The notes under the pieces: model-generated
What the model was told of the DNA's origin: nothing
What the model saw: only the letters and a program-made list of their open reading frames with translations
Database searches by the model: none
Shown here: in pieces, positions 26,512 to 56,496 of the stretch
Numbering within the stretch: the stretch's first letter is position 1
Layout of the letters: each line of letters starts with the position of its first letter
IMG/VR virus record: IMGVR_UViG_3300023212_000537
Location: 1-64,000 of that record
Strand: one strand, 5' to 3'
DNA: 64,000 nucleotides
From: a virus
Position numbers and translations under genes: made by a program

Positions 26512-26603
26512 CTTATAGTAATATGGAGATTTATCAATTGGATGGTACTAATAAAAGTATTGCAAATATATTAATTAAATATTTTCAAAGAAAGGAGGGG
26601 AAA

Positions 26604-27850: not shown

Positions 27851-27858
27851 TCTCCTTA

Positions 27859-27888
27859 TTGACAAAACAACATAAATAGTAGTAAAGT
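27859..27888 (+). promoter_or_regulatory. sigma70-like promoter
   Basis: TTGACA (27859-64), 18 nt, TAAAGT (27883-88); ATG at 27898, 9 nt downstream. Confidence 0.45.
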
Positions 27889-27897
27889 TACTATTAA

Positions 27898-28431
27898 ATG
27901 AACAAATTACCCTCGAAAATAAATGAATTTATTATCACATCAAAAGTGGTAAACTTATGTAATAACCTTGGTATTCCTATACCATCAAGATCACAGACTC
28001 TTGGTATCTACGGAGAAATATATGCATATGCCTATTTTCAAGGTAAAGCCGATTTTGTTGAGCCAATTTTTCTTAATGAAACAAAAGGAAGAGAAGACCT
28101 CCTTCTTAATAAAAAAATAAAAGTTGAAGTAAAAACAGCATTAAAAAATAAAGCTGGGAAGTATAGCCTTATATTAGTAAAAAATAAAAAAAATGGTGAA
28201 AACAATTTTGATATACTTTTTTGCCTTTTATTTGATGATATAAATAGCGAACCAACTCTTATAAAAATTCCTCAAGAAAGAATTAAGAAAATCAAAGGAT
28301 TAAATACAAAAAAAGAATACATTATGTCTCTTGCTAAACAAGAATATATACAACAGAAACCTCTTAATCTTATTGTTTGTACAAAACATGGAGCTTATGA
28401 AAAAAGCTGTGGATGTTGGAGAAAAAATTAA
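27898..28431 (+). CDS. hypothetical protein, possible PD-(D/E)xK nuclease fold
   Basis: GREDLLL..KIKVEVKTA could be a D..ExK motif; weak. Confidence 0.4.
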   Translation: MNKLPSKINEFIITSKVVNLCNNLGIPIPSRSQTLGIYGEIYAYAYFQGKADFVEPIFLNETKGREDLLLNKKIKVEVKTALKNKAGKYSLILVKNKKNGENNFDILFCLLFDDINSEPTLIKIPQERIKKIKGLNTKKEYIMSLAKQEYIQQKPLNLIVCTKHGAYEKSCGCWRKN

Positions 28432-28453
28432 TGAAAGGAGGTGAATAAAAATT

Positions 28454-29520: not shown

Positions 29521-29552
29521 AAAAAAAGAGCAAGTAACTTTGCTCTTTTTTT
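29521..29552. terminator. bidirectional intrinsic terminator
   Basis: A7-GAGCAA-gtaac-TTTGCTC-T7. Confidence 0.7.
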
Positions 29553-29560: not shown

Positions 29561-29696
29561 TTGACAAGAGAAAAACTATTTGTTAATAATGAGGTCAGGA
29601 TACGACAGGGGAAATACCTCAGCGTAACCGCTAACTTATAAAGAGTTCCAGAATTATTTTGGAACTCCTTTTTTTTGTGGCGGTTTTTTTTATTAT
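29561..29696 (+). promoter_or_regulatory. late promoter plus structured leader ending in hairpin/U-tracts before the portal ATG
   Basis: TTGACA (29561-66), 17 nt, TAATAA (29584-89); leader hairpin GAGGT..ACCTC; GAGTTCCA/TGGAACTC (29643-67) then T8, then GTGGCGG-T8, ATG at 29697. Confidence 0.55.
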
Positions 29697-33163: not shown

Positions 33164-34078
33164 GTGAATATGGCAGATCCAGTACCAGCGCAACAACCTG
33201 TGCAGCCAGCACAACAGCCAATACAGCCAGTTGCTCCCGTATCTGTCCAGCCAGAATTACCAGCACAGCAGCCAGTACCGCAAGCACCAGTACAGGTGGT
33301 TTCGGAACAACCGCAAGTAGTGCAACGGCCAGTGGAGACGGAAGACAAAACGAGGTATGGGCAAGAAATGGATAAATTGAAAGAACATAATCGAAGACTG
33401 TTTGAAACAAATCAATTATTACAAACAGAGATTCAACGAAGAATGCAATTTAACCAGCAATTTGCTCCTATCCAACAGCAAGGACAAGTAGTGCCACAGC
33501 AACAATTAAATGAAGAAGATTTTGTCACAATAGATCCTTTGACAGGAGATCGATTTATTGATGAGCCAAAATTACGTCAAGCATTAACGCAAGCGCGGCA
33601 GGAAGCAACAACGGCACGTACAGTTGTGCAAAATTATATTAATTCATCTGAGCAACGGGAAGTACAACGGCAGGAGAAAGAGACATTCGCAGTTTATCCA
33701 GAATTAAATCCTAATTCGCAAAATTTTAATGCGAATATGTCAAATCAGGCAAGTGCATTGATCTTTCATTCGCTTGTTGCTCCGCAGAATTATGGTGGTC
33801 GCCCGCTTACTTTTTTAGAAGCGGCCAATATAGTAACAGGCGGACAACAAAAGGGAGTGCCACAGTTACAACCTGTACAGCAAAAAGCGCAACAACAAGG
33901 ATCACAAGCTCAAGAAGCAAAAGAGCAAGCATCAGTAACGTTGCAATCGCAACCACAACAAGTTCTTCCTTCAAATAATCCAGAACTGGAAACATTGCGA
34001 ATGCGAACACGACTTGGTGATGAAGAAGCACTTGCTAAAAGAATTTTAAATACTGATCATGTAATGAAACATGAATAG
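33164..34078 (+). CDS. scaffolding-like protein
   Basis: 304 aa; Q/P-rich N-terminal repeats (QQPVQPAQQPIQP), coiled-coil centre; located between portal and capsid; GGAGGTG SD. Confidence 0.5.
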   Translation: MNMADPVPAQQPVQPAQQPIQPVAPVSVQPELPAQQPVPQAPVQVVSEQPQVVQRPVETEDKTRYGQEMDKLKEHNRRLFETNQLLQTEIQRRMQFNQQFAPIQQQGQVVPQQQLNEEDFVTIDPLTGDRFIDEPKLRQALTQARQEATTARTVVQNYINSSEQREVQRQEKETFAVYPELNPNSQNFNANMSNQASALIFHSLVAPQNYGGRPLTFLEAANIVTGGQQKGVPQLQPVQQKAQQQGSQAQEAKEQASVTLQSQPQQVLPSNNPELETLRMRTRLGDEEALAKRILNTDHVMKHE

Positions 34079-34208: not shown

Positions 34209-35099
34209 TAAATTAAGATATTTGCACTTTGACAACTGAAAGGAACTTGATTATAATAATCACATGAATTTTATCTGCTTGATTTGCAAGAAAAGTTTTT
34301 TTTCTTACAACAAAAAGAGAAAAACATGTTCTAAGAAATGTTCTGCAATTAATCAACAGAGCAGAATTATTAGGCAATGCGATTTTTGTAAAAAGAATAT
34401 TTCTAGAGTACCAAATGAATTAAAATATAAAAACATTTTTTGCGATAAAGTATGTCAACATAAATGGCAGAGACAGCATAAAATGAGGTTCTTTCAATTG
34501 AGGAATAAGAAATGGTGCATGGAGAAATATAAGGAAAAATCTCTAAAACAGATAGCAGAGGAAATAGGATGTGGAGAAACGATCATATATAAATACTTCA
34601 AAATTCATGGGATTAAATTAAACAGAGAACAATGGATTTCAGGCGATAAACATTATCTATGGAAAAATGGCATAACGCCATTTTATAAAATGATTCGTAA
34701 TCGGAGAAAATACTTTCATTGGCGACAGGAAGTTTTGAAGAATAATTTGTTGCAATGCATTTCATGCGGATCAATTAAAAACCTTGAAGTAGATCATATT
34801 AAAAAATTAAAATTTATTCTTGTCGATAATACTATTAAAACTATAGATGATGCGATGCGGTGTGAAGAGTTATGGGATATAAAAAATGGAAGAATTCTTT
34901 GTAGATCATGTAATCTTTTACGCGAGAAAAAATACATCTAAAATGGTCCTCTATAAAGCAGGCTAAACGGCGAACGGAAGAACTCCCAACGTCGTACCAA
35001 ATAAAAAAGGTCTAGAGACTATACACCTGCTGCTATAAATTAAATAATATATAGTAATGAAATAGTCCGATACTCTTAGGAATAGGAGATTAACAATCG
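34209..35099 (+). mobile_element. group I intron (891 nt) carrying an HNH homing endonuclease
   Basis: exon 1 ends in U (gaT) and the intron ends in G (aatcG). An in-frame TAA follows the 5' splice site directly. The 158-nt 3' core has GCAGG (34958-62) pairing with CCTGC (35026-30). CTAAACGGCGAAC..GGTCTAGAGAC resembles the T4 td intron core from memory. Confidence 0.65.
34264..34941 (+). CDS. HNH homing endonuclease (intron-encoded)
   Basis: N-terminal Cys-rich zinc fingers; C-terminal LEVDHIKKL..NGRILCRSCN HNH motif; own promoter TTGACA (34229-34), 17 nt, TATAAT (34252-57), with the ATG 6 nt downstream. Confidence 0.85.
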   Translation: MNFICLICKKSFFSYNKKRKTCSKKCSAINQQSRIIRQCDFCKKNISRVPNELKYKNIFCDKVCQHKWQRQHKMRFFQLRNKKWCMEKYKEKSLKQIAEEIGCGETIIYKYFKIHGIKLNREQWISGDKHYLWKNGITPFYKMIRNRRKYFHWRQEVLKNNLLQCISCGSIKNLEVDHIKKLKFILVDNTIKTIDDAMRCEELWDIKNGRILCRSCNLLREKKYI

Positions 35100-35960
35100 C
35101 TTATGGATGTACTCGCAGATGTCTCGCCAGATGAAACTCCGCTTTTAACACTCTTTGCCACAAGTACGGCAAGAGGGACGTTACATGAATGGTTAAAATA
35201 CAATATCACCAGACCAACAACGGTTTCGGCAGATGTTGAAGGTGCGGATATTACGTTCTCTGATTTAACACAACCATCAAGAACAAATAATATCACTCAA
35301 ATTATCAATCAGGCAGTTCAGGTTTCCAGAACTGAACGCAAAGTAAATGTTGCTGCAATGGGAGATCCATATGCATTCCAAAAAGCAGATGCATTAAGAC
35401 AGTTGAAAATGAAAATGGAATATGCAATTCTTAATGCGGCAAAAGCATCAGGAGCATCAGGATCGGCAAGACAAATGCAAGGCGTGGATGCCTTTATTGC
35501 AACACTTGTGACTGCGAGAAATTCAGGAACATCCTATTCTGAACAGGAACTGAATGATATGGCATCTGATTCATTCAATACAGTGCGTGCAGATAAAGTG
35601 TTTGATATGTTACTGTGTACAGTAAAAATCAAGCAGGCAATCGCAGGATTCGCGGGAAATTCAACAAGATATATTGATGCAGCGGATAGACGCTTAACAA
35701 AAGATATCTTGGTCTATGATTCAGCCGTTGGTTCTCATAGAATCATGCATCATAGAGATGTCCGTAATAATGCGGGATCAACAACTGTATATGGATTAAG
35801 AGAGGATATGCACCGAGTGGCATATCTTGATAAACCATTATTTGATGAATTAGCAAAAGTCGGCGATGCAGATCGCGGACGCTGGGTAACTGAGTTTACA
35901 TTGGAAGTTCTTGAAGAAAGAAGTGACCAAAAAAGAACGGGGTACGCACAATCAGGATGA
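35100..35960 (+). CDS. major capsid protein, exon 2 (HK97 fold, DUF5309/SU10-like)
   Basis: DVLADVSPDETPLLTLFATSTARGTLHEWLKYN.. is the family N-terminal signature; 285 aa; downstream of scaffold. Confidence 0.8.
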   Translation, partial: LMDVLADVSPDETPLLTLFATSTARGTLHEWLKYNITRPTTVSADVEGADITFSDLTQPSRTNNITQIINQAVQVSRTERKVNVAAMGDPYAFQKADALRQLKMKMEYAILNAAKASGASGSARQMQGVDAFIATLVTARNSGTSYSEQELNDMASDSFNTVRADKVFDMLLCTVKIKQAIAGFAGNSTRYIDAADRRLTKDILVYDSAVGSHRIMHHRDVRNNAGSTTVYGLREDMHRVAYLDKPLFDELAKVGDADRGRWVTEFTLEVLEERSDQKRTGYAQSG

Positions 35961-36754: not shown

Positions 36755-36784
36755 TTGACAACAATAATAAAAGAATGATTTAAT
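36755..36784 (+). promoter_or_regulatory. late-type promoter (TTGACA..TTTAAT class)
   Basis: TTGACA (36755-60), 18 nt, TTTAAT (36779-84); ~200-nt leader with hairpin TAGTCG/CGACTA (36794-36816). Confidence 0.45.
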
Positions 36785-36982
36785 AGAAGTATAGTCGCTT
36801 TAGTAGAACGACTACAAAGTGATCAATAGAAGTTTTCTTTTATCTCTCCAATGATAAAGGATGGACTGTTTTATTGGTCGCTTTTTTTGTGGGATATATA
36901 AAGGGTCATTCCCTCGTCGGCGCACGTTCCATACGAACAAGTCGGGAGGTATGTATTTCATAAGAAGAGGCAGGTGAAATCT

Positions 36983-37204
36983 ATGGCAACAAATATTCCT
37001 GTAAATAAAAACAATCCAAGTATTAAACCTACAGATCAACCTCTTGGAAAAAATGCGCAAATTGGCACAGCCAATAAAGATGCATTAACAAAAAAAGCAC
37101 CAGCGTCTATGGGATATAACGTTTTTGATTATACTGATTATTTTAATCCTGATGCTGGTATATATGGAGGGTTTCGTGGTTTTACTGATAAGAAAGGATA
37201 TTAA
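36983..37204 (+). CDS. hypothetical protein with C-terminal YGGFRG motif
   Basis: ..FDYTDYFNPDAGIYGGFRGFTDKKGY; paralogous C-terminus in the next ORF. Confidence 0.5.
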   Translation: MATNIPVNKNNPSIKPTDQPLGKNAQIGTANKDALTKKAPASMGYNVFDYTDYFNPDAGIYGGFRGFTDKKGY

Positions 37205-37512: not shown

Positions 37513-37572
37513 GGATTTGCCAATCGCATACAAACAAGCTATATCTTTTGCAGAATACTTGTTGTGGTATTT

Positions 37573-40023
37573 ATGGAGCAGAAACCAAAATTATATTTAT
37601 CGATGATCATTAAAGATGATGAGCCTATTGCCATCGTTAAACGATCACTTGATAGCGTTAAAGCATTTGTTGATGCTGTTTATGTAGCAGTTACCTATAC
37701 AAAAGTTCAACCTTCTGATTCTCCTTTGCTTACTTTCTTACAAGAAGAAAAAGTACATCTTTCTTTTTTCCAATGGATAGATGATTTTGCTGCTGCGCGC
37801 AATTTTGCCATAAATCAAGTGCCGAAGGGGTCTGACTGTTTTATTTATTGGCATGATGCAGATGATATTGTTGATAAACCTGCCCTTCTTCCTCAAATTG
37901 CTTCTGAAATGTATGCAAATAATGTAGCTGCATATTTTTTCCCTTATTTATATATGGTTGAGCTTGATAAAGAAGGAAATATTAGAGAAATATTAGTGGA
38001 GCATAAACGAGAACGGTTAATTAGAAACGATGATACATTCAAATGGATTGGCGAACTTCATGAAACGCTTATTGAACAACGACAGGAGAATGTACAGAAA
38101 TATATGCGTCCAGATATCAGCGTTATTCATTTATCTGATGATAAACGGATTATGACAAATTTAGAACGTAATATTCGCATTTTAGAAAAAAAATTGAAAA
38201 AAGAAGAACATCGTGATCCGCGAACGGTTATTTACCTTGCGAAAGCATATTTTGATAAAGGAAAAGGTCTTGAAGATCGCAATGAACGAAAAATGTGGAT
38301 TGATCTTTCTCTTGTTTTATTTCGGGAATATTTGGAAGGGGAAGGAAAACCAGGAACAAAAGAGTATCGGGAAGGATCGGGATGGGCAGAGGAACGCTCA
38401 ACTGCATGGGCATATGTTGCGGATATATTTCGTATGTATAATAAACTGGATCAGGCAATCGAAGCAATTAATTATGCAATTGATGAGGCACCGCAATTTC
38501 CTTCTTATTATGTTGACAAAGCAGCATTATATGTTATGAAACAAGATATTTCTCGCGCGCAACATTGGTTACTTTTAGCAACGAATGTAAAAGAACCAGA
38601 AACAACAATTGTTACTATGCCTCGTGATTTGAAAGTAAAAGCATTAGAAGTTGATTATCATGTTGCGCTTGCTTCTCAAAAACTGGAAAAAGCACAGCAG
38701 GATTTAGAGCTGCTTCTTTCCATTTTGCCAGGAAACGTAGCATTTGAAGAAAGACTTGCGCAAGTAAAAAAACTTATTATGGCAAATCGAGCGTCCCAAT
38801 CGATTGTTTTTTTAGGAAAATATCTGGAAGAAACGAAAGAGGAAGAAAAAGTTCCCTATTTAATTCGGGCAATCCCTAAAGATTTAGAAGTTGAAAAATT
38901 TTCTTCAGAAATGCGTCATCGATTTATGCAACCGCGTCTTTGGGAAAAAAATGAAATTGCTATGCTTTGTGGACCTGGATGGGAAACATGGAGTCCAAAA
39001 AGTATTGCAACAGGACTGGGTGGATCAGAAGAAGCAATTGTATATATGAGCCAGGAATTAACAAAGCTGGGATGGAAAGTAACTGTCTATGCTAATCCAG
39101 CAGAACATTCGGGAGAATATGATGGAGTAGTATATAAGCAGTGGTATGATCTAAATCCAAAAGATCACTTTAATATTTTGTTTTTATGGCGCGCTGTTGG
39201 ATTTGTTGACGTTTCACCAAAAGCAAAATACAGCGTACTTTGGATGCACGATATTCCTAATAATCCAGATTTTACACAGGAACGAATTGAAAAAATTAAT
39301 AAAATTGCTGTGCTTTCCGATTATCATAAATCTCTTTTCAGAATGCAGAAAAAAGACGGCTCTTTTGTAAAAATTCCTGATGAAAAGTTTTTCCGTACTG
39401 CTAATGGTATTTCTTTGCAAGATCCGAAAGATTGGAACGGTGATTCCCATAAAATGATTTATGCATCCAGTCCTGATCGGGGACTTATATATCTGTTAAA
39501 TAACTGGAAAACAATTAAAGAAGCGGTGCCAGATGCAACGCTTGATATCTATTATGGATTTGCTATTTTTGATCGAATATTTGCCAATAATCCAGGACGA
39601 ATGGCATGGAAACAACAGATGATGCAGTTAATGGAACAGGATGGTATTACCTATCATGGCCGAGTGGGACATAAAGAACTGGAAGATGCTTTTGCGAAAG
39701 CGGGTATATATGCATATCCAAGTGACTTCCAAGAAATCTCGTGTATTTCTTTAATGAAAGCGCAAGCGTTGGGTGCAGTACCAGTTGTTACAAATTATGC
39801 AGCGTTAAAAGAAACAGTGCAAAATGGAGTAAAAGTTGATTGCGATATTACTACTTCAGAGGGACAGAAAATATATATACAAGCACTTATTGATATGCTC
39901 AAAAATGAAGAAGAGCAGAAAGAGATTAGAAAGACAATGGTACCATGGGCGCGTGAATATTTTCCATGGAATAAAGTTGCGCATGATTGGGATAGTTTAT
40001 TTACCAAGGAGGTGAAAGAATAA
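37573..40023 (+). CDS. multidomain glycosyltransferase (GT2-like N-terminus, TPR-like middle, GT4/GT1-like C-terminus)
   Basis: LSMIIKDDEP..WHDADD (GT-A DxD); helical repeats; GGSEEAIVYMSQELTKLGWKV..EISCISLMKAQALG (GT-B). Confidence 0.65.
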   Translation: MEQKPKLYLSMIIKDDEPIAIVKRSLDSVKAFVDAVYVAVTYTKVQPSDSPLLTFLQEEKVHLSFFQWIDDFAAARNFAINQVPKGSDCFIYWHDADDIVDKPALLPQIASEMYANNVAAYFFPYLYMVELDKEGNIREILVEHKRERLIRNDDTFKWIGELHETLIEQRQENVQKYMRPDISVIHLSDDKRIMTNLERNIRILEKKLKKEEHRDPRTVIYLAKAYFDKGKGLEDRNERKMWIDLSLVLFREYLEGEGKPGTKEYREGSGWAEERSTAWAYVADIFRMYNKLDQAIEAINYAIDEAPQFPSYYVDKAALYVMKQDISRAQHWLLLATNVKEPETTIVTMPRDLKVKALEVDYHVALASQKLEKAQQDLELLLSILPGNVAFEERLAQVKKLIMANRASQSIVFLGKYLEETKEEEKVPYLIRAIPKDLEVEKFSSEMRHRFMQPRLWEKNEIAMLCGPGWETWSPKSIATGLGGSEEAIVYMSQELTKLGWKVTVYANPAEHSGEYDGVVYKQWYDLNPKDHFNILFLWRAVGFVDVSPKAKYSVLWMHDIPNNPDFTQERIEKINKIAVLSDYHKSLFRMQKKDGSFVKIPDEKFFRTANGISLQDPKDWNGDSHKMIYASSPDRGLIYLLNNWKTIKEAVPDATLDIYYGFAIFDRIFANNPGRMAWKQQMMQLMEQDGITYHGRVGHKELEDAFAKAGIYAYPSDFQEISCISLMKAQALGAVPVVTNYAALKETVQNGVKVDCDITTSEGQKIYIQALIDMLKNEEEQKEIRKTMVPWAREYFPWNKVAHDWDSLFTKEVKE

Positions 40024-40229
40024 TGGATACATTTGTAAAATTGCCAAGAGGTAAATGTTTTGTTTGCGGAAAAGAAGTTCCGATTAGATCGATTCGAGAA
40101 AAAAATAAAGCGGTATTTTGTTCGCGAAGTCATGCATCGCTAGGGAAATATAAAGCACGATATTCGGGAGCAAATGCAGGGCCAAGTGATCGGCCTGAAA
40201 ATATTTTAGATAAAGCAAAACAATTATGA
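40023..40229 (+). CDS. small hypothetical protein (68 aa)
   Basis: ORF track; CFVC..CSRSH. Confidence 0.45.
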   Translation: MDTFVKLPRGKCFVCGKEVPIRSIREKNKAVFCSRSHASLGKYKARYSGANAGPSDRPENILDKAKQL

Positions 40230-40245
40230 GAAAGGAGGCGCATTT

Positions 40246-40467
40246 ATGGTAGGTCCTAATGAGATAACTTCTACTGATGTTTTGCAAATTGCAAACGCAC
40301 TCGCTGTTGCAACAGGAAGTAGAATAATGTCGCAGGAATATGCAAAGGAAATATGGATGCAATATCTGAAAAAAGCAGGATACGCTACTGTTCGTGAAAA
40401 AAATACGATGACGGTAACAGGAACAAGAATGGAAGGAAATGAAGTAACGGTAATAAAACAGGGATGA
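40246..40467 (+). CDS. hypothetical protein (73 aa)
   Basis: ORF track; AAAGGAGG SD. Confidence 0.5.
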   Translation: MVGPNEITSTDVLQIANALAVATGSRIMSQEYAKEIWMQYLKKAGYATVREKNTMTVTGTRMEGNEVTVIKQG

Positions 40468-40479
40468 AAGGAGGTGACT

Positions 40480-40878
40480 ATGGCACGATTAAAAAAACTT
40501 GATCCTGAATGGAAACCAGCAGAAAATCCATATTTAAAAGTTGGAGGAATAATTGAAATCACTGATTATTCACAGCTTGTAAGGCAATCAAAAGCAATTC
40601 TTGTTGACGAGAGAGGAAATGAAATTCCTCTTCCTGATGAGATATTAGTTTGTCCTGTGTGTTTCAGAAAAATTCAAGGATCACTTAATGAATTTAGTAA
40701 ACATATTCAAGTGGATCATGCACCAAAATCAAAAACAGGAATGATGGTAGTAGAAGAAATAAAAGAAGAGGAAACAGAAACAACGCAAGCACCTTCTCCT
40801 CTAATGAAATCGGCAGTAGAAATTGCAAAGGAAAGAAGATTAGAAGCACTCGCTGTGGCGAGAGGAAAAACAATATAG
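40480..40878 (+). CDS. hypothetical protein with C2H2-like zinc finger
   Basis: CPVCFRKIQGSLNEFSKHIQVDH; GGAGGTG SD. Confidence 0.5.
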   Translation: MARLKKLDPEWKPAENPYLKVGGIIEITDYSQLVRQSKAILVDERGNEIPLPDEILVCPVCFRKIQGSLNEFSKHIQVDHAPKSKTGMMVVEEIKEEETETTQAPSPLMKSAVEIAKERRLEALAVARGKTI

Positions 40879-40879
40879 T

Positions 40880-41674
40880 ATGGAGAAAAAACTCCTTTTC
40901 GTTTTTGATTTTAAATATCCCGAAACTTTCTTAATGGGTAGTGGATTATGGGCGGCAATAGAATTATTGCAACAGGATTTTGCTATCGAGAAAATAAATA
41001 TAGCGGTTGAAAAACCACATGAAACACTTTCAGATTTTGTTTTGGGCTGGGGAGCATTTAATAGTCGGGTAGATCGTATGTTACAGACTTTGCCTTCTGA
41101 TATTCCCAAAGGTCTTTGTATCGCAGGCAATTCTTTTCCTCCTGATGGCATGGAAAAATATAATGTATTATTCCATGAAACGATGTTTGGAAAAGAACAG
41201 ATTAAAAATCATCCACATACTGTTCATGCATTTGGCGTGAACACCGATATTTATTGGGGACATTCATCAGTGAAAATTTGGGATTATCTTACTGTTGGCG
41301 CATTCGCTTCTTGGAAGCGGCAAAATCTTCTGATAAAAAAAACAGGAACACGCTTTGCAATCGGGGAAATTCAAAAAGGAAATATTTCAGAATCCATGAA
41401 TATTATTGCAGAATTGTTATTAGAGGGAATCGGAATAAGTGATATGGTAATGCCTGAAAATTTGGCAAAAATATATAAGTTAGCAAAAGTAGTATATATT
41501 CCTGCTAACAGCAATGGAGGAGGAGAACGAGCAGTCCTTGAAGCACGCGCTTGTCGTATTCCTGTAGAGGTAGAATCCGATAATCCAAAACTTATAGAAT
41601 TGACAAAATCCCCTTTGTGGGATCAATGGTATTACATGGAGCAATTAAAAAAAGGAATAAGTAATTATGTATGA
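40880..41674 (+). CDS. glycosyltransferase-like protein (GT-B C-terminal half)
   Basis: VYIPANSNGGGERAVLEARACRIPV resembles the E(x7)E region of GT4 enzymes. Confidence 0.45.
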   Translation: MEKKLLFVFDFKYPETFLMGSGLWAAIELLQQDFAIEKINIAVEKPHETLSDFVLGWGAFNSRVDRMLQTLPSDIPKGLCIAGNSFPPDGMEKYNVLFHETMFGKEQIKNHPHTVHAFGVNTDIYWGHSSVKIWDYLTVGAFASWKRQNLLIKKTGTRFAIGEIQKGNISESMNIIAELLLEGIGISDMVMPENLAKIYKLAKVVYIPANSNGGGERAVLEARACRIPVEVESDNPKLIELTKSPLWDQWYYMEQLKKGISNYV

Positions 41675-42051
41675 AAATAGCATTTGATTTTAATGGTGTT
41701 ATGGATACATATCAGCAGATATTACTTCCTTTTATTGTCTTATTAAAACAATCGGGCCATCAGGTAGGATTATGTACGGGAAATGCTAGTGGGGTATTTC
41801 CCAAAGAATATAAAAATTTTTGGGATTTTACTATTTTTTGTGAAGGACCAGAAGAAGAGATGCGATTAAGCAAGAGAGTTGCAACGACACATGAAGAGAA
41901 AATGAAATATTGGAAATCAAAAGCACTACAAGAACAAAAAGTTGATCTTATTTTTGAAGATCATGCAAAACAAATAGAAGGAGTAACGGCAGTTCAGATT
42001 GGAATGCCGCAGAAAACAACCTATGATACCGCTTCTAAGACCGACAATTGA
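41671..42051 (+). CDS. HAD-like hydrolase (126 aa)
   Basis: MKIAFDFNGVMD (motif I with Asn at the second acidic position), GLCTG, FEDH. Confidence 0.4.
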   Translation: MKIAFDFNGVMDTYQQILLPFIVLLKQSGHQVGLCTGNASGVFPKEYKNFWDFTIFCEGPEEEMRLSKRVATTHEEKMKYWKSKALQEQKVDLIFEDHAKQIEGVTAVQIGMPQKTTYDTASKTDN

Positions 42052-43132
42052 TGAGCAAACAAAGCAGGAATTATTGCAGGTTCTTGATTCTGGCTGGTGG
42101 GGTCAAGGGCCAAAAACTTTTGAATTTGAGAAAAAATTTGCTGATTATGTTGGGGCAAAGTTTGCTATCGCAACAAATTCAGGAACAGCAGCTCTTGATT
42201 TATGCCTGAAAGCATATGGAATAAAAGGCGGAGAACTTATCACAAGTCCTATGACATTTGTTGCTGATGCCATTGTAGGAGAATGGAATGGAATGGATGT
42301 GACATTTGCCGATATTGATGAAGATTCATTATGTCTTTCTCCAAAAACACTTGAAATAACGCAAGAAACAAAAGCAATCATTGTTATTAATTCTCATGGA
42401 AGACTTGCTGATATTGACGCAATCCGAGAAAAAGCAACAATAGCTGATCCTAATGGCATTGCAACGTTTTGTCCTCTTATTATTGAAGATTGCGCTCATG
42501 CAATGTATACGCCTTCTGCTGGACAAAAAGGAGATATTGCTATATGGTCTTTTCAGGCAGTAAAAACTTTACCCACAGGCGACGGAGGCATGATTTCAAC
42601 AAATGATGAAAAAATCTATCAAAGATTACGAACGCTTACATGGCTTGGTATTGAAAAATCAACATATGAACGAGTGGAGAAAAAACGCTATACATGGGAT
42701 TATGATATTATACAAGCAGAGGGTACAAAAGCATATATGAATGATTTAACAGCGGTAATTGGTATTGGGCAATTAAGACGCTTAGAAGAAACGAATGCAA
42801 AGCGCCGCGCAATTCAGCAAATGTATAATACTGCTTTTTGTGATATCCCCCAGATTACTATTCCTATGTATTCGCATACTGTGCAATATTATACAATGCA
42901 ATGCGATAATCGGGATGAGTTATCAAATTATTTAGCAGGAAAAGGATACGCAACATCAGTGCATTTTAAGGTATTGCATAAAATGACATATTGGCGTAAA
43001 GCTATGAAGAAACCACTGCCAGTTGCAGATAAGGTATGGAAAAGATTATTGACATTACCCGTTCATAATGCATTGACATTTCAACAAGTTGAAGAGATTA
43101 TTACCCATGTAAAAACATTTTATAAACAATGA
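42023..43132 (+). CDS. DegT/DnrJ/EryC1/StrS-family sugar aminotransferase (PLP)
   Basis: IPLLRPTIDEQTK..SGWWGQGPK..FEKKFADYVG..NSGTAALDL..SFQAVKTLPTGDGG (Lys in the SFxxxK context). Confidence 0.8.
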   Translation: MIPLLRPTIDEQTKQELLQVLDSGWWGQGPKTFEFEKKFADYVGAKFAIATNSGTAALDLCLKAYGIKGGELITSPMTFVADAIVGEWNGMDVTFADIDEDSLCLSPKTLEITQETKAIIVINSHGRLADIDAIREKATIADPNGIATFCPLIIEDCAHAMYTPSAGQKGDIAIWSFQAVKTLPTGDGGMISTNDEKIYQRLRTLTWLGIEKSTYERVEKKRYTWDYDIIQAEGTKAYMNDLTAVIGIGQLRRLEETNAKRRAIQQMYNTAFCDIPQITIPMYSHTVQYYTMQCDNRDELSNYLAGKGYATSVHFKVLHKMTYWRKAMKKPLPVADKVWKRLLTLPVHNALTFQQVEEIITHVKTFYKQ

Positions 43133-43782
43133 ACAATATTCTTTTTACTGGCGCTCATGGATTATTGGGAAATTATATGCTTCCGCTTCTTGAGGAGCTT
43201 GTTGATGGAAAAATAATTACTCCAACGCATCAGGAATATGATCTTTCACATCCCATTCTTCCTGTATATAAAGATCTTGCTTTTATTATCCATGCTGGCG
43301 CATATACATCTGTTATTGGCGCAGAAACAGAAGCAGCTATTTGTTTTGAAACAAATGTGGGAGGAACATTGCGATTGCGTCATGCATATAAGGATACTCC
43401 TTTTATATATATATCAACAGAATATGCAGCGCATCCAGAATTGAATATTTATAGTTGGACAAAAGAACTTGGCGAAGAAATAGTAATGCGCATTGCCACT
43501 GCTCCTTATTTAATTATCCGCACTTTATTTAAGCCTGTTCCTTTTCCTTTTGAAAAAGCATATGGTGATCAATGGACGCAGGGAGATGAAATAACAACGA
43601 TTGCGCCGCTTCTTGTCGGGAAAATTACGCAATGGTATAAAAATGATTTTCCCAACGAATTCTGTTACATTGGCACAGGAAGAAAGCGGATTATAGATAT
43701 AGCGCGAAAGAGTAACCACGCAATAGAAGAAAATTCTATTCATGATATAGAAGGAGTAACTCTACAAAGCGATTATGAATAA
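43129..43782 (+). CDS. NAD(P)-dependent sugar epimerase/reductase (RmlD-like short SDR)
   Basis: ILFTGAHGLLGNY Rossmann GxxGxxG; YSWTK (YxxxK). Confidence 0.6.
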   Translation: MNNILFTGAHGLLGNYMLPLLEELVDGKIITPTHQEYDLSHPILPVYKDLAFIIHAGAYTSVIGAETEAAICFETNVGGTLRLRHAYKDTPFIYISTEYAAHPELNIYSWTKELGEEIVMRIATAPYLIIRTLFKPVPFPFEKAYGDQWTQGDEITTIAPLLVGKITQWYKNDFPNEFCYIGTGRKRIIDIARKSNHAIEENSIHDIEGVTLQSDYE

Positions 43783-44344
43783 AGAACCAAGAATTTCTAT
43801 TGTTATTCCTCATGTGCCTGCAAGCAAACAATTGGAGGAGTTATTGCAGAATTGCATAAAAAGTTTAGAAAATCAATCATATCATAGATTGATTATTGTA
43901 GTGAATGATGCAATTGGATATGGCGCAGCTTTTAACCGCGGATTTTCTGTGGCACAGGAAGATTTTATTATTGGTGTGTCAAATGATACAGAACTTATTG
44001 ACGGGAATTTGCAGGATATGTGTGATCCCAAAGCAGTTACCTATGCTTCTGATGCGCAATGGGGATGTTTTTTCTGTCTTCCTCGTTTTGTTCTTTCTAC
44101 AATTGGAGGATTTGATACCCGAATTGGAAAAGCATATTTCGAAGATGATAATTATTTAAGCCGTCTTAAGCGTGCTGGCATTCCTGTTAGGCGAATACCT
44201 ACTATTAAAGTATTTCATATAGGAGGAGTGACAGTAAAAACAATTGGGAATGAAAATGAATTTATGAATAAGGCGCGTCCTATTTATGAACAAATTGAAA
44301 AAGAATTAGATAAAGGTATGTCACTTTTTGTTCCATTAATATAA
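43775..44344 (+). CDS. family-2 glycosyltransferase
   Basis: ISIVIPHV.. VNDA..; FEDDNY (DxD-like). Confidence 0.6.
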   Translation: MNKEPRISIVIPHVPASKQLEELLQNCIKSLENQSYHRLIIVVNDAIGYGAAFNRGFSVAQEDFIIGVSNDTELIDGNLQDMCDPKAVTYASDAQWGCFFCLPRFVLSTIGGFDTRIGKAYFEDDNYLSRLKRAGIPVRRIPTIKVFHIGGVTVKTIGNENEFMNKARPIYEQIEKELDKGMSLFVPLI

Positions 44345-45118
44345 ATGTCCGCATCAAAAATATCATTATCGATAATCACCCCAACGATTAGACCAGCTCG
44401 TTTACAAATTAACCTTACGGCATTACAAAAACAGTCATTTAAAGCATGGGAATGGATTATTTGTGCACCTGCTACATTAGAAGATGAAATTAAAAAAGTC
44501 CTGGGAACAACTGTTACTTATTCTTTCTTAGGTAATCCACCTTTACAAAAAGGACAAGTTTGGGATTTAAACTTTTCATATAATAAACTTTTTAAAGCAG
44601 CAAAAGCGGAATTAATCGTGAGTTGGCAAGATAGTATTTGGGTTCCTTCCACTGGATTACAGCAATTTTGGGATGCATATCAAAAGACAAAAGGCGCAAT
44701 AAGCGGAGTTGGTGATCAATATGAGACAGTTGATGAATTCGGAAAACCAATTATCAAAATATGGTCTGATCCTCGCAAAAGACAGGATTTGGGAAGTTAC
44801 TATGAAATTAATTGGATTGATTGTGAATGGAATTGGTGTTGTGTTCCAACAAAAGATATTTTCGCCGTTGGAGGCTGTGATGAAAATTTAGATTTTATGG
44901 GATATGGAGGAGATACATTCCAGTTAACAGAACGATTACATGAACAAGGAACACGTTTTTGGATTGACCAATCCAATGAATCATTTACTCTTCGTCATAC
45001 ACGAGAACGATCTGATTGGGATCAAAATTATGTTCTTTTTACAGGCGCATATCAAAAGCGCAAGCAGGAATTAAAGCAGCAAAATAAATGGCCGATTCTT
45101 GACTTCTTAAAAGAGTAA
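44345..45118 (+). CDS. family-2 glycosyltransferase-like protein
   Basis: LSIITPTIRPARL.. GT-A N-terminal pattern. Confidence 0.5.
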   Translation: MSASKISLSIITPTIRPARLQINLTALQKQSFKAWEWIICAPATLEDEIKKVLGTTVTYSFLGNPPLQKGQVWDLNFSYNKLFKAAKAELIVSWQDSIWVPSTGLQQFWDAYQKTKGAISGVGDQYETVDEFGKPIIKIWSDPRKRQDLGSYYEINWIDCEWNWCCVPTKDIFAVGGCDENLDFMGYGGDTFQLTERLHEQGTRFWIDQSNESFTLRHTRERSDWDQNYVLFTGAYQKRKQELKQQNKWPILDFLKE

Positions 45119-45198
45119 GTTATAATCACAATAGCTTTAAAGCAAAGTACTTGCAGGAGCTGATAACTGTTTAATGTCTTTTATCAGCTCTTTTTTTT
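45099..45198 (+). promoter_or_regulatory. promoter -> leader -> hairpin+U8 cassette
   Basis: TTGACT (45099-104), 16 nt, TATAAT (45121-26); hairpin GAGCTGATAA/TTATCAGCTC (45158-90) then T8; ATG at 45204. Confidence 0.55.
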
Positions 45199-47271: not shown

Positions 47272-47478
47272 ATGAATTATTATCTAATTTCTGAGATTCT
47301 TGCGAATCAATTACTTGCCTATTTAGTGAAACGTCCTTATGAGGATGTTAATAGTTTTATTCTTCAATTACAGCAATTGCAAAAAGTTACCATTAATCAA
47401 GAGAAAGATAATCAAAATAACAAAAGTCTGGAAAAAGAAAAAGATAAAATGATCTCGAAGAATATTGACAAGCAATAA
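47272..47478 (+). CDS. hypothetical protein (68 aa)
   Basis: ORF track. Confidence 0.45.
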   Translation: MNYYLISEILANQLLAYLVKRPYEDVNSFILQLQQLQKVTINQEKDNQNNKSLEKEKDKMISKNIDKQ

Positions 47479-47565
47479 TTGGTGTGTTTTAATCACACAA
47501 GAAGTCTAACGACAGGCAAAATCTGCCGCGTAAGATCCTATTTTTTAAAATAGGGTCTTTTTTTT
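47465..47565 (+). promoter_or_regulatory. promoter -> leader -> hairpin+U8 cassette preceding an HNH gene
   Basis: TTGACA (47465-70), 17 nt, TTTAAT (47488-93); hairpin GATCCTATTTT/AAAATAGGGTC (47534-57), T8 (47558-65), ATG at 47566 with no SD. Confidence 0.6.
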
Positions 47566-48258
47566 ATGAAAAAGCATTGTAAACAATGTAAAAAAATATT
47601 GTATGGGCGGAATAAAGATTTTTGTTCACGTATATGTCGGGGAGAATCACAAAAATTGGGTAAATGGATTATTTGTAAGACATGTGAGAAAGAAATTCGT
47701 TTGCCTTTATTCCGACTAAGAAAAGGTGCGAAATTTTGTGGAATAAATTGTTATGGTGCATGGAGAAGAACAATTACATTGTCAAAAGAGCATAAAAGAA
47801 GAATAGGTATAGCTGGTAAAGGAAGAATTGTCGCAAAAGAAACTAGAGAAAAAATAAGACAAGCTAATATGGGGAAAACATGGTCTGAGGAGAAGAAAAA
47901 GAAAATGAGCATGATTAAGCAAGGTGTTAAAGATAAGAAAACTTGGAAAGGATTTAAAAATTCTCTTAATAGAAGAGATAGATTAAAATTTCAGAGAGAA
48001 ATACAAAAACAAATATTTCAACGAGATAATTATACTTGTCAAATATGTGAAAAAAAAGGAGGCATTCTTCATGTGGATCATATTCAGTCTTGGTCAGAAT
48101 ATATTGAACTTAGATTTAGTATGAAAAATTTAAGAACACTTTGTCGATCTTGTCACTATTTAATTACTTTTGGGAAAATTATGCCCCTTGAGAGTAAATG
48201 GGGTATTTCTTTTATGCCTCATAACGAAAAGTTAAATCATGAGGAGAAAGGAGCGTGA
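47566..48258 (+). CDS. HNH homing endonuclease (free-standing)
   Basis: N-terminal CxxC fingers, NUMOD-like KEHKRRIG/ETREKIRQANMG repeats, ILHVDHIQS..NLRTLCRSCH. Confidence 0.85.
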   Translation: MKKHCKQCKKILYGRNKDFCSRICRGESQKLGKWIICKTCEKEIRLPLFRLRKGAKFCGINCYGAWRRTITLSKEHKRRIGIAGKGRIVAKETREKIRQANMGKTWSEEKKKKMSMIKQGVKDKKTWKGFKNSLNRRDRLKFQREIQKQIFQRDNYTCQICEKKGGILHVDHIQSWSEYIELRFSMKNLRTLCRSCHYLITFGKIMPLESKWGISFMPHNEKLNHEEKGA

Positions 48259-48695: not shown

Positions 48696-48878
48696 ATGGT
48701 AGAAAGAAGATGTATTATTTGCGGCAGATTATTTTTAGCAAGACGTAATCATGTAAGAGATGGTGGGGGGAAATACTGTACGAAACGATGTTACTGGGTA
48801 ACGTATAGAAATCAGAAAAAACCGCCAAGTGATCTTATGTGGCGACTTCATAAAATAAAAGAAGAAGGATTTATTTAG
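48696..48878 (+). CDS. zinc-finger fragment resembling HNH-endonuclease N-termini
   Basis: CIICGRLF..GGGKYCTKRCYW parallels CLLCKKEF..GKGKYCSKVCCR of 49607..50179, but lacks the HNH domain. Confidence 0.45.
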   Translation: MVERRCIICGRLFLARRNHVRDGGGKYCTKRCYWVTYRNQKKPPSDLMWRLHKIKEEGFI

Positions 48879-49606: not shown

Positions 49607-50179
49607 ATGATATGCTTACGATACTGTTTATTGTGCAAAAAGGAATTTAAGAGGCAACTATCTCCTGATAATATAAAAAGGGGGAAAGGGAAATATTGTA
49701 GTAAAGTATGCTGCCGTAAACATTTTGATCTTTTAAGAAAAGAGGGGAAAATTAAAATATATTATGAAGGATTAAAATTTGGCAGATTGGGTAAAAATAT
49801 CTTGGATAAAGAATCTTTTCGAGAGAAAATTTCTAAATCGCTTTTAGGGAAAACTGGAGAATTATCAAGAAACTGGAAAGGCGGAGTTAATCCCATCAAC
49901 AATAGTATTCGAAGAAGAAAAATATATAAAGAATGGAGAAAGATGGTATATGAACGCGATAATTATACTTGCCAAATATGCGGAATAAGAGGAATAGAAC
50001 TCCACGCAAATCATATTAAGAAATTTTCAGATTATCCAGATTTACGTTTTGAAATTAATAATGGAATAACATTATGTAAACGATGTCATCAATTAGTAAC
50101 ATGGAATGAGCAAGAGTGGGAAAGTTATTTTAATTTTTGCTGGGAGAATAAATTTCTACAAAAAGGAGGAATAATTTAA
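49607..50179 (+). CDS. HNH homing endonuclease (free-standing)
   Basis: ERDNYTCQICG..ELHANHIKK..NGITLCKRCH. Confidence 0.85.
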   Translation: MICLRYCLLCKKEFKRQLSPDNIKRGKGKYCSKVCCRKHFDLLRKEGKIKIYYEGLKFGRLGKNILDKESFREKISKSLLGKTGELSRNWKGGVNPINNSIRRRKIYKEWRKMVYERDNYTCQICGIRGIELHANHIKKFSDYPDLRFEINNGITLCKRCHQLVTWNEQEWESYFNFCWENKFLQKGGII

Positions 50180-52131: not shown

Positions 52132-52242
52132 TTGACAACTTCTTTTGTTTGTGTTTTAATCAAGAAAATTCTTAAAGAAAAGCGAAATACGCTTTATGAG
52201 AAGACCAATTTGTAAAACGTAAAACAAGTTGGTCTTTTTTTT
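52132..52242 (+). promoter_or_regulatory. promoter -> leader -> hairpin+U8 cassette preceding an HNH gene
   Basis: TTGACA (52132-37), 17 nt, TTTAAT (52155-60); small hairpin GCGaaataCGC; GACCAA../..TTGGTC (52203-34), T8, ATG at 52243. Confidence 0.6.
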
Positions 52243-53130
52243 ATGAAAAAGAATTGTCGGATTTGCAATAAAGAAATCATAAAAGTTTCTAAAATTAGTA
52301 AAAAACAGTGGAATTCCAAAAAATATTATTCATGGAGTTGCCGTGCAAAAGGAGTTGGTTTAGATCAAACAGGTAAAAATAATCCCCATTATGATAAGCA
52401 TAATAGTTCTTGGAATAAAGGGAAAAGTTGGTCTAATGAATCAAGAAAAAAAATGAGTATAGCGCATATCGGAATGATTTCACCACTTAGGGGACGAAAA
52501 AAGAAAAATACAGTATGGAATAAAAATAAAATTGAATGGAAGAAATGTATGGAATGTGGAGAATTAACTAGAAAATGGAAAAAATATTGTTCTTTGGATT
52601 GTGCTAAAAAAAGAGAACCATGGAATAAACAAAAATCAATTGATAAAAATTGTATTATTTGTCAAAAATTATTTCAAACCACAGGAAAAAATAAAAATAA
52701 GATATGTTGTTCGGATACTTGTTCAAAAATTCAATCAGGAAAAACAAAAAGTGGAAAAAACCATCCAATGTTTGGAAAAACTCATACAAAAGAAGCTCGA
52801 GAAAAGATAAGCCAAGCACATAAAGGAAAACGTGGTTGGAATTATAAAGGAATAACGCCGATTAATAAACTAGAACGGAGAAAATTTAGAACAGAAATGC
52901 AACATCTTGTTTTTGAAAGAGATAACTATACTTGCCAGCTTTGTGGAACAACACAAGATTTGCAAGTAGATCACATTCAACCGTGGGCAGAATACGTAGA
53001 ACTCCGATTTAAAATGGAAAACTGTAGAACAGTTTGTGCAAAATGCCATTATTTTATAACTTTTGGTAAACCAATGCCTAAGGAAGTAAAAGGATGGGGA
53101 CATAATTTATTAAAGAAAGGAGGAAATTAA
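52243..53130 (+). CDS. HNH homing endonuclease with NUMOD3-like repeats
   Basis: GKNNPHY, GKNHPMFGKTHTKEAREKISQAHKG; ERDNYTCQLCG..LQVDHIQP..NCRTVCAKCH. Confidence 0.85.
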   Translation: MKKNCRICNKEIIKVSKISKKQWNSKKYYSWSCRAKGVGLDQTGKNNPHYDKHNSSWNKGKSWSNESRKKMSIAHIGMISPLRGRKKKNTVWNKNKIEWKKCMECGELTRKWKKYCSLDCAKKREPWNKQKSIDKNCIICQKLFQTTGKNKNKICCSDTCSKIQSGKTKSGKNHPMFGKTHTKEAREKISQAHKGKRGWNYKGITPINKLERRKFRTEMQHLVFERDNYTCQLCGTTQDLQVDHIQPWAEYVELRFKMENCRTVCAKCHYFITFGKPMPKEVKGWGHNLLKKGGN

Positions 53131-54841: not shown

Positions 54842-54941
54842 TTGACAAGATACATTGATTATGTTTTAATCAAAAAAGAAACTTACCAAGAGGCGAAAAC
54901 GCTTTGGCAAGACCAATTTTTCATAATTGGTCTTTTTTTTT
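54842..54941 (+). promoter_or_regulatory. promoter -> leader -> hairpin+U9 cassette (homologous to 52132-52242)
   Basis: TTGACA (54842-47), 17 nt, TTTAAT (54865-70); GGCGaaaaCGCT; GACCAATT/AATTGGTC, T9; ATG at 54951. Confidence 0.6.
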
Positions 54942-56160: not shown

Positions 56161-56291
56161 AAATATTTAGAAAAAATGTAAAACAGAGAACAGGTCGTGT
56201 ACGCGGACAAAAAAACCCTTACCATAAGCGTCCGCATAAAACGCCGTATGGAGCAAAAGCGCAATCTATTACATCGGGAACAGCATATTAG
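56157..56291 (+). CDS. tiny basic protein (44 aa)
   Basis: MKIFRKNVKQRTGRVRGQKNPYHKRPHKTPYGAKAQSITSGTAY. Confidence 0.35.
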   Translation: MKIFRKNVKQRTGRVRGQKNPYHKRPHKTPYGAKAQSITSGTAY

Positions 56292-56307
56292 AAAAAGAGG
56301 TAAAAAT

Positions 56308-56496
56308 ATGGCAGGAGTTGTACCAGCAACAAAAAGAGGAAAAGCAATGGTTGCAAAATTAGGAAGAACAAAAAAAACTGGGGGATTTGCCAGAATTGCA
56401 GCGAAAGCAGGAAAGCGGTATGGATCAGCGGCAGCAGGAAAAAGAGTCGCAGGGAAAATTTTTCAAGCTATGGTAAGAGCAAGAGGAGGAGGTTGA
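56308..56496 (+). CDS. small basic protein (62 aa)
   Basis: start moved to MAGVVPATKRGK after an AGAGG SD. Confidence 0.45.
   Translation: MAGVVPATKRGKAMVAKLGRTKKTGGFARIAAKAGKRYGSAAAGKRVAGKIFQAMVRARGGG

Follow-up and report, generated by a model that had tools for sequence, protein, structure and literature searches.

Phages time their late genes by several well-known means, among them the Q and N proteins of lambda, sigma factors encoded by phages, and activators (RinA or Alt, for example). Here we describe a recurrent cassette, made of a promoter, a short leader, an intrinsic terminator with a long U-tract and a start codon, in a 64,000-nucleotide (nt) stretch of DNA from an uncultivated virus (positions 1 to 64,000 of IMG/VR record IMGVR_UViG_3300023212_000537, the whole of which is called the window below). 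The window is part of a phage genome of about 35% G+C, whose contig measures 93 kb, and the copy at 47465 to 47565 is taken as the type example. Its leader contains a small hairpin, P1, extended by an outer helix, P0, that reaches into the terminator. We propose that such cassettes are attenuators of the late operons, i.e. sites of conditional leader termination, and give this reading a probability of roughly 0.5.

In the licS leader of Bacillus subtilis, a ribonucleic antiterminator (RAT) hairpin overlaps the terminator by 8 nt, and binding of LicT decides the outcome (PMC5393181). A partially overlapping, protein-stabilised antiterminator hairpin is the canonical LicT/RAT design (PMC5393181), and by analogy the cassette would come closest to it in logic: both have a promoter, an imperfect hairpin with an internal loop, and an intrinsic terminator that shares part of its 5' arm with the 3' strand of the hairpin. 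Unlike LicT/RAT, the cassette has an overlap of 2-4 nt and one internal loop with a pentaloop of consensus A-R-M-A-M, and it would control phage late structural operons, in at least six copies per genome, instead of sugar-utilisation genes. No Pfam match to the CAT_RBD domain was obtained in any scanned open reading frame (ORF) of the window. The cassette leaders are presumably also unlike the RAT consensus, for which no search was made. Having no CAT protein, no RAT consensus and a shorter overlap, the cassette is not a member of the RAT/LicT family. In the consulted literature on RNA-binding antiterminators, leaders of the antiterminator-versus-terminator type are described only for bacterial metabolic operons, and a 2025 review of this field does not mention phages (PMC12591593).

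The layout also resembles lambda pR'-tR', where a strong intrinsic terminator lies within about 60-200 nt of the late promoter, a short leader, the 6S or StxS RNA, is the default product, and the late genes need read-through (PMC7547250). The original prediction had interpreted the cassettes as antitermination-controlled on this model. Conditional leader termination does fit the order of the elements, their positions and the separate terminator ahead of the portal cassette, while the comparison with Q is not supported: no Q-family protein was found, each operon has its own cassette whereas lambda has one late promoter with processive antitermination, and what is conserved and covaries is an RNA hairpin that overlaps the terminator, where lambda has a Q-binding site in the DNA and a sigma-dependent pause. 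The -10 region is conserved over 11 nt, as is an initial transcribed sequence, ACATAGG(TTA); ACATAGG also occurs at an early promoter without a terminator in the relative L152.

Other known leaders share single features with the cassette. P1 is similar in size to boxB of the lambda N/nut system: both are short hairpins, rich in GC and with a pentaloop rich in A, that are transcribed a little way past the promoter and ahead of a terminator. Unlike boxB, its loop begins with A rather than G and is not GNRA-like (as are GAAAA, GAAGA and GACAA). No convincing boxA was seen; CUUAA-like words upstream of P1 are inconsistent between cassettes. Moreover, the hairpin overlaps its own terminator, which points to local and not processive action, and no arginine-rich N-like protein was identified. 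The targets of ANTAR proteins comprise two tandem hairpins with hexaloops bearing A1 and G4, the second of which overlaps the terminator (PMC12591593), whereas the cassette has a single P0-P1 hairpin with a pentaloop. It likewise differs from the HK022 put RNA, which has two larger stem-loops and acts in cis without a protein, in having one small imperfect hairpin. In the Escherichia coli rnd leader, a terminator-like hairpin followed by U8 is needed for translation. The cassette shares with it a hairpin and U8 between promoter and start codon and a poor or absent Shine-Dalgarno sequence (SD), but is retained where a strong SD follows and has an upstream hairpin that covaries with the base of the terminator.

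The seven loci of the original prediction all proved to have the described layout at the coordinates given for them, and its count of at least seven grows by an eighth cassette at 36755-36890. Six of the cassettes are late ones, each with its own promoter and terminator; the two early cassettes (2254 and 16405), on the minus strand, have neither an ARMAM-type P1 nor P0-P1 and constitute a different subclass. The predicted terminators have stems of 9-16 bp, U7-U9 and free energies of -8 to -20 kcal/mol, which fit canonical intrinsic terminator features. The promoters had been called good sigma70-type sites. The one at 47465 has a perfect -35 box and a TG extension. By hexamer alone, the -10 box TTTAAT at 47465, 52132 and 54842 is not good, as T replaces the near-invariant A at -11, and a consensus promoter scan did not list these three. 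The TATAAT of the 45099 cassette is in register with the TTTAAT of these three.

The layout exceeds what would be expected by chance. Four TTGACA-N14-18-TTTAAT sites are present in the window, the 36755 cassette having been found as the fourth, against 0.24 expected, and none of 100 shuffled sequences reached four; promoter-like sites overall are no commoner than in shuffled sequence. Cassette leaders fold better than their shuffles (z scores from -2.9 to -5.8, with -5.8 at 52132 and -4.9 at 36755). When terminators were called with our own finder (compact stems, T>=7), those on the coding strand were almost exclusively cassette terminators, with the exception of the bidirectional one at 29521-29552. 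As a control, 110 generic terminators with the stem AAGACCAA..TTGGTCTTTTTTT were taken from unrelated viral contigs; a collection scan for this stem, which turned up 107 generic terminators in unrelated phages, was useless for finding relatives. Among these 110 controls, a promoter scoring >=10/12 lay within 120 nt upstream in 17%, and a start codon followed within 20 nt in 10% and within 3 nt in 1%; promoter, small hairpin and start codon were combined in none. With a looser terminator finder, of which only the promoter-plus-start counts were used, TTGAC upstream combined with a start codon <=25 nt past the site was counted 37 times among 257 terminator-like sites of related loci, and 0 times among 311 such sites of unrelated loci. 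Rfam 15 gave no match at gathering scores, and none on any cassette at E<=5.

The relatives of this phage were found in metagenomes only. Among deposited phages (50,697 genomes), there was no DNA match by megablast and no portal-protein match by tblastn, and a scan of 185,579 reference genomes returned no relative and hence no host hint. In more than 25 related metagenomic contigs, the succession of promoter, leader, terminator and start codon occurs in about 40 cassettes, and the promoter precedes the terminator in every one. All are co-oriented with the first gene of their operon, from which they are separated by 0-25 nt on its upstream side except at 36755, where the distance is greater; none stands alone. 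The single-stranded 5' parts differ between paralogous cassettes. A cassette heads the portal gene of about 20 related lineages (40-82% protein identity), where TTGACA and a weak, TG-extended -10 are followed by a leader, a small hairpin and a long terminator with U6-U9 that is often compound; the start codon comes 0-25 nt further on. Compensatory changes are found in the outer stem of these portal terminators. The cassette positions are conserved across phages whose portals are just 40-80% identical: before the portal, before the cluster with the 819-amino-acid (aa) glycosyltransferase gene, after the homolog of gene 44345, before the homolog of gene 48313 and after the gene of a 650-aa structural protein.

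This 650-aa protein led to the relatives L124 and L125 (71-73% identity) and L126 (57%), which contributed ten further cassettes. The promoter motif of L124 and L125, TTGACAA-N13/14-TGTTTTAATC[AG], is the same as that of the window, and the 11-nt -10 motif of the 47465 promoter recurs in six of their cassettes; L126 has a different, internally conserved -10 region (TTACTATTA, against TGTTTTAATCA in the window, L124 and L125). L124, L125 and L126 share the position of the 45099 cassette after the 44345 homolog, and in all three the ortholog of the 52132 cassette follows the 650-aa gene. The position of the 36755 cassette matches that of an L004 cassette before the homolog of the 819-aa gene.

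The portal cassette deserves separate mention. In relatives it comes directly after the genes of TerL (terminase large subunit), 25804 and 26820, whereas in the window a module at 27107-29497 is inserted between the 26820 gene and the cassette, with its own promoter (27859) and its own bidirectional terminator. The module consists of three genes, for a metallophosphatase, a protein of unknown function and an ARPP-1 domain protein, and is not at this place in any relative. Since the module has its own terminator at 29521-29552, the portal leader terminator is not needed for ending upstream transcription and therefore would act on transcripts from the cassette promoter. The U-tract of this cassette had been placed about 20 nt before the ATG; an inner U8 is indeed there, but the terminator is compound. 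Its inner hairpin (29643-29667, with U8 at 29669-29676) is enclosed by an outer stem (29629-29683), whose own U8 (29684-29691) ends 5 nt before the ATG at 29697.

P1 is a hairpin of 4-5 bp, GC-rich and mostly closed by G-C, which ends 1-10 nt before the terminator. Position 1 of its loop is A in 22/25 cassettes, and the hairpin is preceded by A in 24/25. When it was sought with no assumption about its position and by a strict definition (>=4 Watson-Crick pairs, <=10 nt before the terminator), P1 was present in 14 of 24 cassettes, compared with 1.46 +/- 1.17 in shuffled sequence (maximum 6 in 500). In a hand-registered alignment of 25 cassettes, 99% of the cells pair, all four pairs are represented by several compensatory pair types, and 39 double-sided changes were counted against 10 +/- 2.4, a value that none of 500 shuffles reached. 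When 21 portal leaders were aligned with MAFFT, the copies of P1 did not fall into register, and RNAalifold therefore predicted no structure.

P0 is formed by the initial transcribed sequence, which pairs with the spacer after P1 and with the first 2-4 nt of the terminator 5' arm. When leaders were cut at the first 6-8 nt of this arm and folded, the base of the terminator was sequestered (>=2 of its first 4 nt) in 27/34 cassettes, against 12.8 expected from shuffling the sequence upstream of P1, with a mean energy z score of -1.45. In a swap test, which retains shared motifs and breaks only cassette-specific pairing, duplexes with a cassette's own flank averaged -5.27 kcal/mol and those with the flanks of other cassettes -2.52 kcal/mol; 0 of 5000 permutations reached this, and 22 of the 34 cassettes ranked in the best 10%. 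The 47465 cassette, with a matched duplex of -6.0 kcal/mol, ranked at 0.09. The pairing partners differ from one cassette to another: GUUC/GAAC in L115, CAGU/ACUG in L142, AGCU/AGCU at 45099 (where P0 lies within the terminator arm), GAUUAA/UUAAUC in L146, and GUCAA or GUUAA with UUGAC in L126b and L126a, respectively. In four of them, the initial sequence, the terminator's 5' base and its 3' end form a three-way match (L115 GUUC/GAAC, L142 CAGU/ACUG, 45099 AGCU/AGCU, L146 GAU/AUC). Because the first 2-4 nt of the terminator arm are also part of P0, in its 3' strand, P0-P1 competes with the base of the terminator, and in full-length minimum-energy folds the two are nearly equal competitors (e.g. 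L132 versus L129). That P0 and P1 covary shows that the RNA hairpin as such is under selection. The features of the window are compiled in Table 1.

Table 1. Cassettes and adjoining features in the window
Feature	Position	Strand	Description
Late promoter	47465-47493	+	TTGACAA-N14-TGTTTTAATCA; TTGACA-17-TTTAAT, TG at -15/-14, T at -11
P0-P1 leader hairpin	47510-47537	+	P1 GGCA[AAAUC]UGCC 47515-47527; outer GUCU/AGAU reaches terminator 5' arm
Predicted intrinsic terminator	47532-47565	+	Hairpin 47532-47557, 12-bp stem; U8 47558-47565 abuts ATG 47566
HNH homing endonuclease gene	47566-48258	+	PHROG HNH 1.9e-20; between cassette and original first gene 48313
Cassette	52132-52242	+	Promoter 52132-52160; P1 AAAGCG[AAAUA]CGCUUU 52179-52195; terminator 52202-52234; U8 52235-52242
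Second HNH homing endonuclease gene	52243-53130	+	Inserted directly past the U-tract
Cassette	54842-54941	+	Promoter 54842-54870; P1 GGCG[AAAA]CGCU 54892-54903; terminator 54909-54932; U9 54933-54941; ATG 54951
Cassette	45099-45198	+	TTGACT-16-TATAAT 45099-45126; P1 GCAA[AGUAC]UUGC 45142-45154; terminator 45156-45190; U8 45191-45198; ATG 45204
Cassette	36755-36890	+	TTGACAA-N-TGATTTAAT; small hairpin 36792-36814; long hairpin 36816-36884, U7 36884-36890
Portal cassette	29561-29691	+	Promoter 29561-29590; P0 UACG/CGUA; P1 GGGG[AAAUA]CCUC 29607-29619; compound terminator
Bidirectional terminator	29521-29552	.	Ends inserted module 27107-29497, directly upstream of portal cassette
Early-type cassette	2254-2349	-	TTTACA-17-TATATT and TG-extended TATACT; hairpin GUGUGGU..ACCACA; terminator 2282-2261; U7 2260-2254
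Early leftward cassette	16375-16444	-	TTGACA-17-TATACT; hairpin 16405-16382 from about +5; U7; 140-nt structured leader to ATG 16235

Taken together, these features suggest the following switch. Transcription would start at the cassette promoter, and the first 60-100 nt of RNA would fold into a short single-stranded 5' end, a hairpin made of P0, an A-rich asymmetric internal loop, P1 and the A-R-M-A-M pentaloop, and a long terminator with U7-U9. By default, the 3' arm of the terminator would displace P0, the full terminator would form, and RNA polymerase would release a short leader RNA. If P0-P1 were held closed, the bottom pairs beside the U-tract could not form and the polymerase would read into the operon; P0 would thus serve as the antiterminator. 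The holder would most simply be a phage RNA-binding protein made earlier in infection. The cassette terminators, which we infer to be functional, may have a second role in stopping transcription from the upstream unit, and at the portal this would separate middle from late genes.

Candidates for such a trans-acting factor were sought among the phage proteins. The original prediction had noted no recognisable antiterminator gene, and this holds at the level of Pfam and PHROG profiles: among about 95 ORFs, no RNA-binding antiterminator and no Q, N, NusG-like or sigma protein was found, although very divergent proteins could escape these profiles. Sequence searches of the Protein Data Bank (PDB) with the giant ORF described below, 16718-16912 and 16939-17637 gave no matches. 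A homolog search with 26820-27110 returned one relative, and its AlphaFold model was poor (predicted local distance difference test score, pLDDT, 57.6). A scan for arginine-rich motifs hit only 48696-48878, apparently the N-terminal part of an HNH protein, and 56197-56496, a basic protein of the late region (isoelectric point, pI, 12); neither is plausible as an N protein. The 64-aa product of 16718-16912 (pI 10.9) is an N-like candidate by position and charge only.

Besides this missing factor, several observations weigh against a switch. The P1 alignment was registered by hand, and the covariation test thus leans towards structure. Within one genome the P1 loops vary (AAAUC, AAAUA, AAAA, AGUAC), which argues against strict sequence-specific recognition. 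The overlap with the terminator is short compared with the 8 nt of the licS RAT, and several of the base pairs it affects, where the U-tract begins, are marginal ones (A-U or G-U). In four contigs (L134, L135, L136 and L141) the portal gene has no cassette at all. In any case, an activator may be required by the late promoters that have T at -11, and there would then be less need for a second layer of control. Finally, P0-P1 is missing from the two early cassettes, although these have to be expressed by host polymerase in its unmodified form, and therefore the terminators may simply be leaky.

Two of the cassettes in the window are followed by homing endonuclease genes, and these bear on the start-codon junction. 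In L124 and L125, the counterpart of the 47465 cassette stands directly before the 48313 homolog; at the position of 52243, an HNH gene is found at the same place in L125 and none in L124 or L126. Where present, in the window (47566 and 52243) and in L125, the HNH gene starts exactly at the end of the U-tract and the conserved structural gene comes next, while after the same cassettes in L124 and L126 the structural gene follows directly. The HNH genes, being present or absent between leader and structural gene, are therefore homing-endonuclease insertions, and the U8-ATG junctions at 47566 and 52243 are scars of insertion and no translation signal by design. Two more HNH-type genes or fragments, 48696-48878 and 49607-50179, are found between structural genes; together with 34264, 47566 and 52243, the late region has at least five endonuclease genes. 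Free-standing homing endonucleases, the seg and mob genes, are known from T4-like phages. As in that case, the HNH genes here occupy intergenic sites flanked by conserved genes, occur in some relatives and not in others, and need read-through to be expressed; the difference is that the insertion point is exactly between the U-tract of the leader and the first gene of the operon. Homing endonucleases can thus insert exactly between a leader and its gene, taking over the control exerted by the leader.

The lack of an SD before most cassette genes had been noted in the original prediction, together with the possibility that hairpin and U-tract act as an SD-independent translation signal. Indeed, just one of the seven cassette-proximal genes in the window has an SD; this is not distinctive, as an SD is recognisable in 29 of 63 window genes (about 46%) and roughly half have none. 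A U-tract of this kind, replacing the SD of the first gene as an S1-type U-rich enhancer, would account for start codons that abut the U-tract (0 nt) in at least 12 cassettes, and lie within 15 nt in most, against 1 of 110 controls. Its weakness as the primary function is that the L124b and L125b cassettes are followed by a strong GGAAGGAGGTG, which shows that a cassette persists even where translation can do without it; the gene that follows at 36755, starting near 36974-36983, about 95 nt downstream of the cassette, likewise has its own SD, and the two HNH junctions arose by insertion. Neither the promoter nor P0-P1 is explained in this way. Translation may be a secondary use of the U-tract, but it cannot be the reason for the cassette, and as an explanation of the whole we consider it very unlikely. 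Scarcely more credit, and if anything a little less, goes to the idea that the 60-100-nt terminated transcripts are themselves the product, as small RNAs acting as trans regulators or decoys, with their position before genes being secondary. The cassette does have the classic layout of a small-RNA gene, with its promoter, single-stranded 5' end, hairpin, terminator and U-tail, and the terminated lambda-type pR' leader of Stx phages acts as the small RNA StxS (PMC7547250). Every copy, however, is a co-oriented 5' leader of an operon, the 5' parts of paralogous cassettes are unlike each other, and P0 ties the 5' end to the base of the terminator. Terminated leaders might still act as small RNAs in addition to conditional termination.

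More serious is the possibility that the cassettes are constitutive punctuation, with leaky terminators that end the upstream operon and set a fixed expression ratio, and hairpins that protect the 3' end of the upstream messenger RNA (mRNA) and the 5' end of the downstream one, without any switch or factor. The cassette terminators are the sole terminators between late operons, the early operons share the promoter-then-terminator layout without P0-P1 and with host polymerase alone, no regulator gene emerged from the ORF scans, and some lineages manage without a portal cassette. Such punctuation leaves three things unexplained: the promoter always lies upstream of the terminator, although with the terminator placed first there would be neither waste nor promoter occlusion; P0 and the base of the terminator covary; and the portal leader terminator stands behind an independent terminator. 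We therefore rate it as rather improbable, if well above the two explanations just discussed. Between them stands a general or promoter-coupled antitermination in which the leader hairpin is not the recognition element, which we think unlikely. In a Q-like version, a factor would be loaded only on polymerases from cassette promoters; in a version like Xp10 p7 or P23-45 gp39, the host polymerase would be made to ignore pauses at U-tracts. The consensus -35 with a lineage-specific 11-nt -10 region (TGTTTTAATCA, or TTACTATTA in L126) could hold a binding site for such a factor, and a terminator that needs to displace P0 would be especially sensitive to faster elongation. Small phage proteins that suppress pausing and termination and are undetectable by homology are known (PMC3351154, PMC4513864). 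On the other side stand the absence of a Q-family match in the profile scans, the presence of one cassette per operon instead of one processive late operon, the ACATAGG of the terminator-less L152 promoter, and the covariation of P0 and P1, which speaks for selection on the RNA hairpin. Conditional leader termination remains the reading that we prefer.

Several other identities were considered and discarded. CRISPR-repeat mimics (RNA anti-CRISPRs) and tracrRNA-like RNAs do not agree with P1 stems that vary within a genome and with a 5' part that is too short. The loop and stem are unfit for N4-type DNA hairpin promoters, and the sites lie before late genes behind sigma70-type -35 boxes. In DNA operators the stems would be conserved, but here they covary. 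A riboswitch was rejected since there is no aptamer-sized conserved core and no Rfam match. K-turn and RNase III sites were also considered and dropped.

The two early cassettes have peculiarities of their own. The 2254 cassette precedes the replication initiator gene (ATG 2253). A segment upstream of its terminator, ACUGGUGAA (about 2313-2304, minus strand), is complementary to the terminator loop UUCACCAGU, and pairing of the two could exclude the terminator of the replication operon; the two candidate promoters of this cassette would yield transcripts with or without the ACUGGUGAA segment. The leftward early leader (16225-16412, minus strand) is predicted to adopt a large multi-branch fold of -52 kcal/mol (z score -4.9) and has no Rfam match. 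Just past its terminator-like hairpin, GGAGGAG pairs with CCUCCUCC just ahead of the ATG at 16235. A helicase-based search for relatives of these two cassettes returned only one distant phage and thus no comparison set.

In the window, minus-strand genes, with replication and helicase functions among them, extend up to 16.4 kb. A rightward block at 16.5-29.5 kb contains metabolic genes, the gene of TerS (terminase small subunit) at 22999 and that of TerL with an intein. The late region begins with the portal gene and has the major capsid gene, a glycosyltransferase cluster, an SU10-like adaptor gene and several HNH genes. An early rightward promoter, TTGACT-17-TATAAT (16495-16531), lies 7 nt ahead of the ATG that starts a ribbon-helix-helix protein gene. 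At 18243-22070 and 2405-3486 there are auxiliary genes that one would not usually expect in a phage of such size; they encode AdoMet-decarboxylase-like, methyltransferase, peptide deformylase, HD-domain, Fic/DOC and PNKP-type phosphatase proteins. The middle region also has an IS110-family transposase-like gene (19668-20811, PHROG 7e-38), followed by a 253-nt non-coding stretch in which ..GCG(N)ATAGCC.. words are repeated.

The TerL intein (23625-25829) carries a LAGLIDADG endonuclease (Pfam Intein_splicing and LAGLIDADG_3). Relatives align only to residues 5-195 and 582-734 of the intein-bearing TerL, which continues in 25804-26511, a separate or overlapping ORF for the nuclease part. Next to it, 26523-26819 encodes a 98-aa protein in which Pfam recognises an Acb2/Tad1 hairpin domain (E 8e-8) and which might serve as a sponge for immune signals of the cyclic-nucleotide type. 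A group I intron (Rfam Intron_gpI match at 34897-35089, E 3.5e-8, under the gathering score) splits the major capsid gene into two parts, 33164-34078 and 35103-35960; in relatives such as L001 the gene is uninterrupted. Within the intron, an HNH ORF (34264-34941) is preceded by a perfect TTGACA-17-TATAAT promoter, and, as the ATG is 7 nt past the -10, its mRNA is probably leaderless; the ribbon-helix-helix gene looks like a second leaderless start. Inside the structural region, the 36755 cassette heads a cluster of glycosyltransferase genes with a DegT/DnrJ-type aminotransferase (37564-44344), which suggests that virion proteins or a sugar-modified component are glycosylated. From 59488 onwards, an ORF for at least 1504 aa runs past the window end at 64000. 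It had no Pfam, PHROG or PDB sequence match and, coming after the structural genes of a podovirus-like phage, could encode a giant ejected or virion protein. In the relative L152 (Logan run SRR33452761), transfer RNA (tRNA)-like sequences with GGTTCGA T-arms occur at 13250-13760, upstream of the portal cassette; no tRNA was found in the window.

The logic of the proposed switch is known; new are the motif, its use in many copies, with one heading each late operon, and the phage clade. If confirmed, the cassette would represent a new RNA motif family with a testable structure and a route to its RNA-binding regulator, and it would provide a compact, modular promoter-switch-terminator part for synthetic biology. 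More tentatively, and at odds that we put clearly below even, this widespread, podovirus-like uncultivated clade may time its late genes by RAT-like RNA antitermination, in which a small phage protein or a hijacked host protein binds P0-P1 (with its ARMAM pentaloop and A-rich internal loop) in each late-operon leader and stabilises the hairpin, thereby keeping the base of the terminator open. If true, no local regulon of an RNA-binding antiterminator would have been described before for the late genes of a phage.

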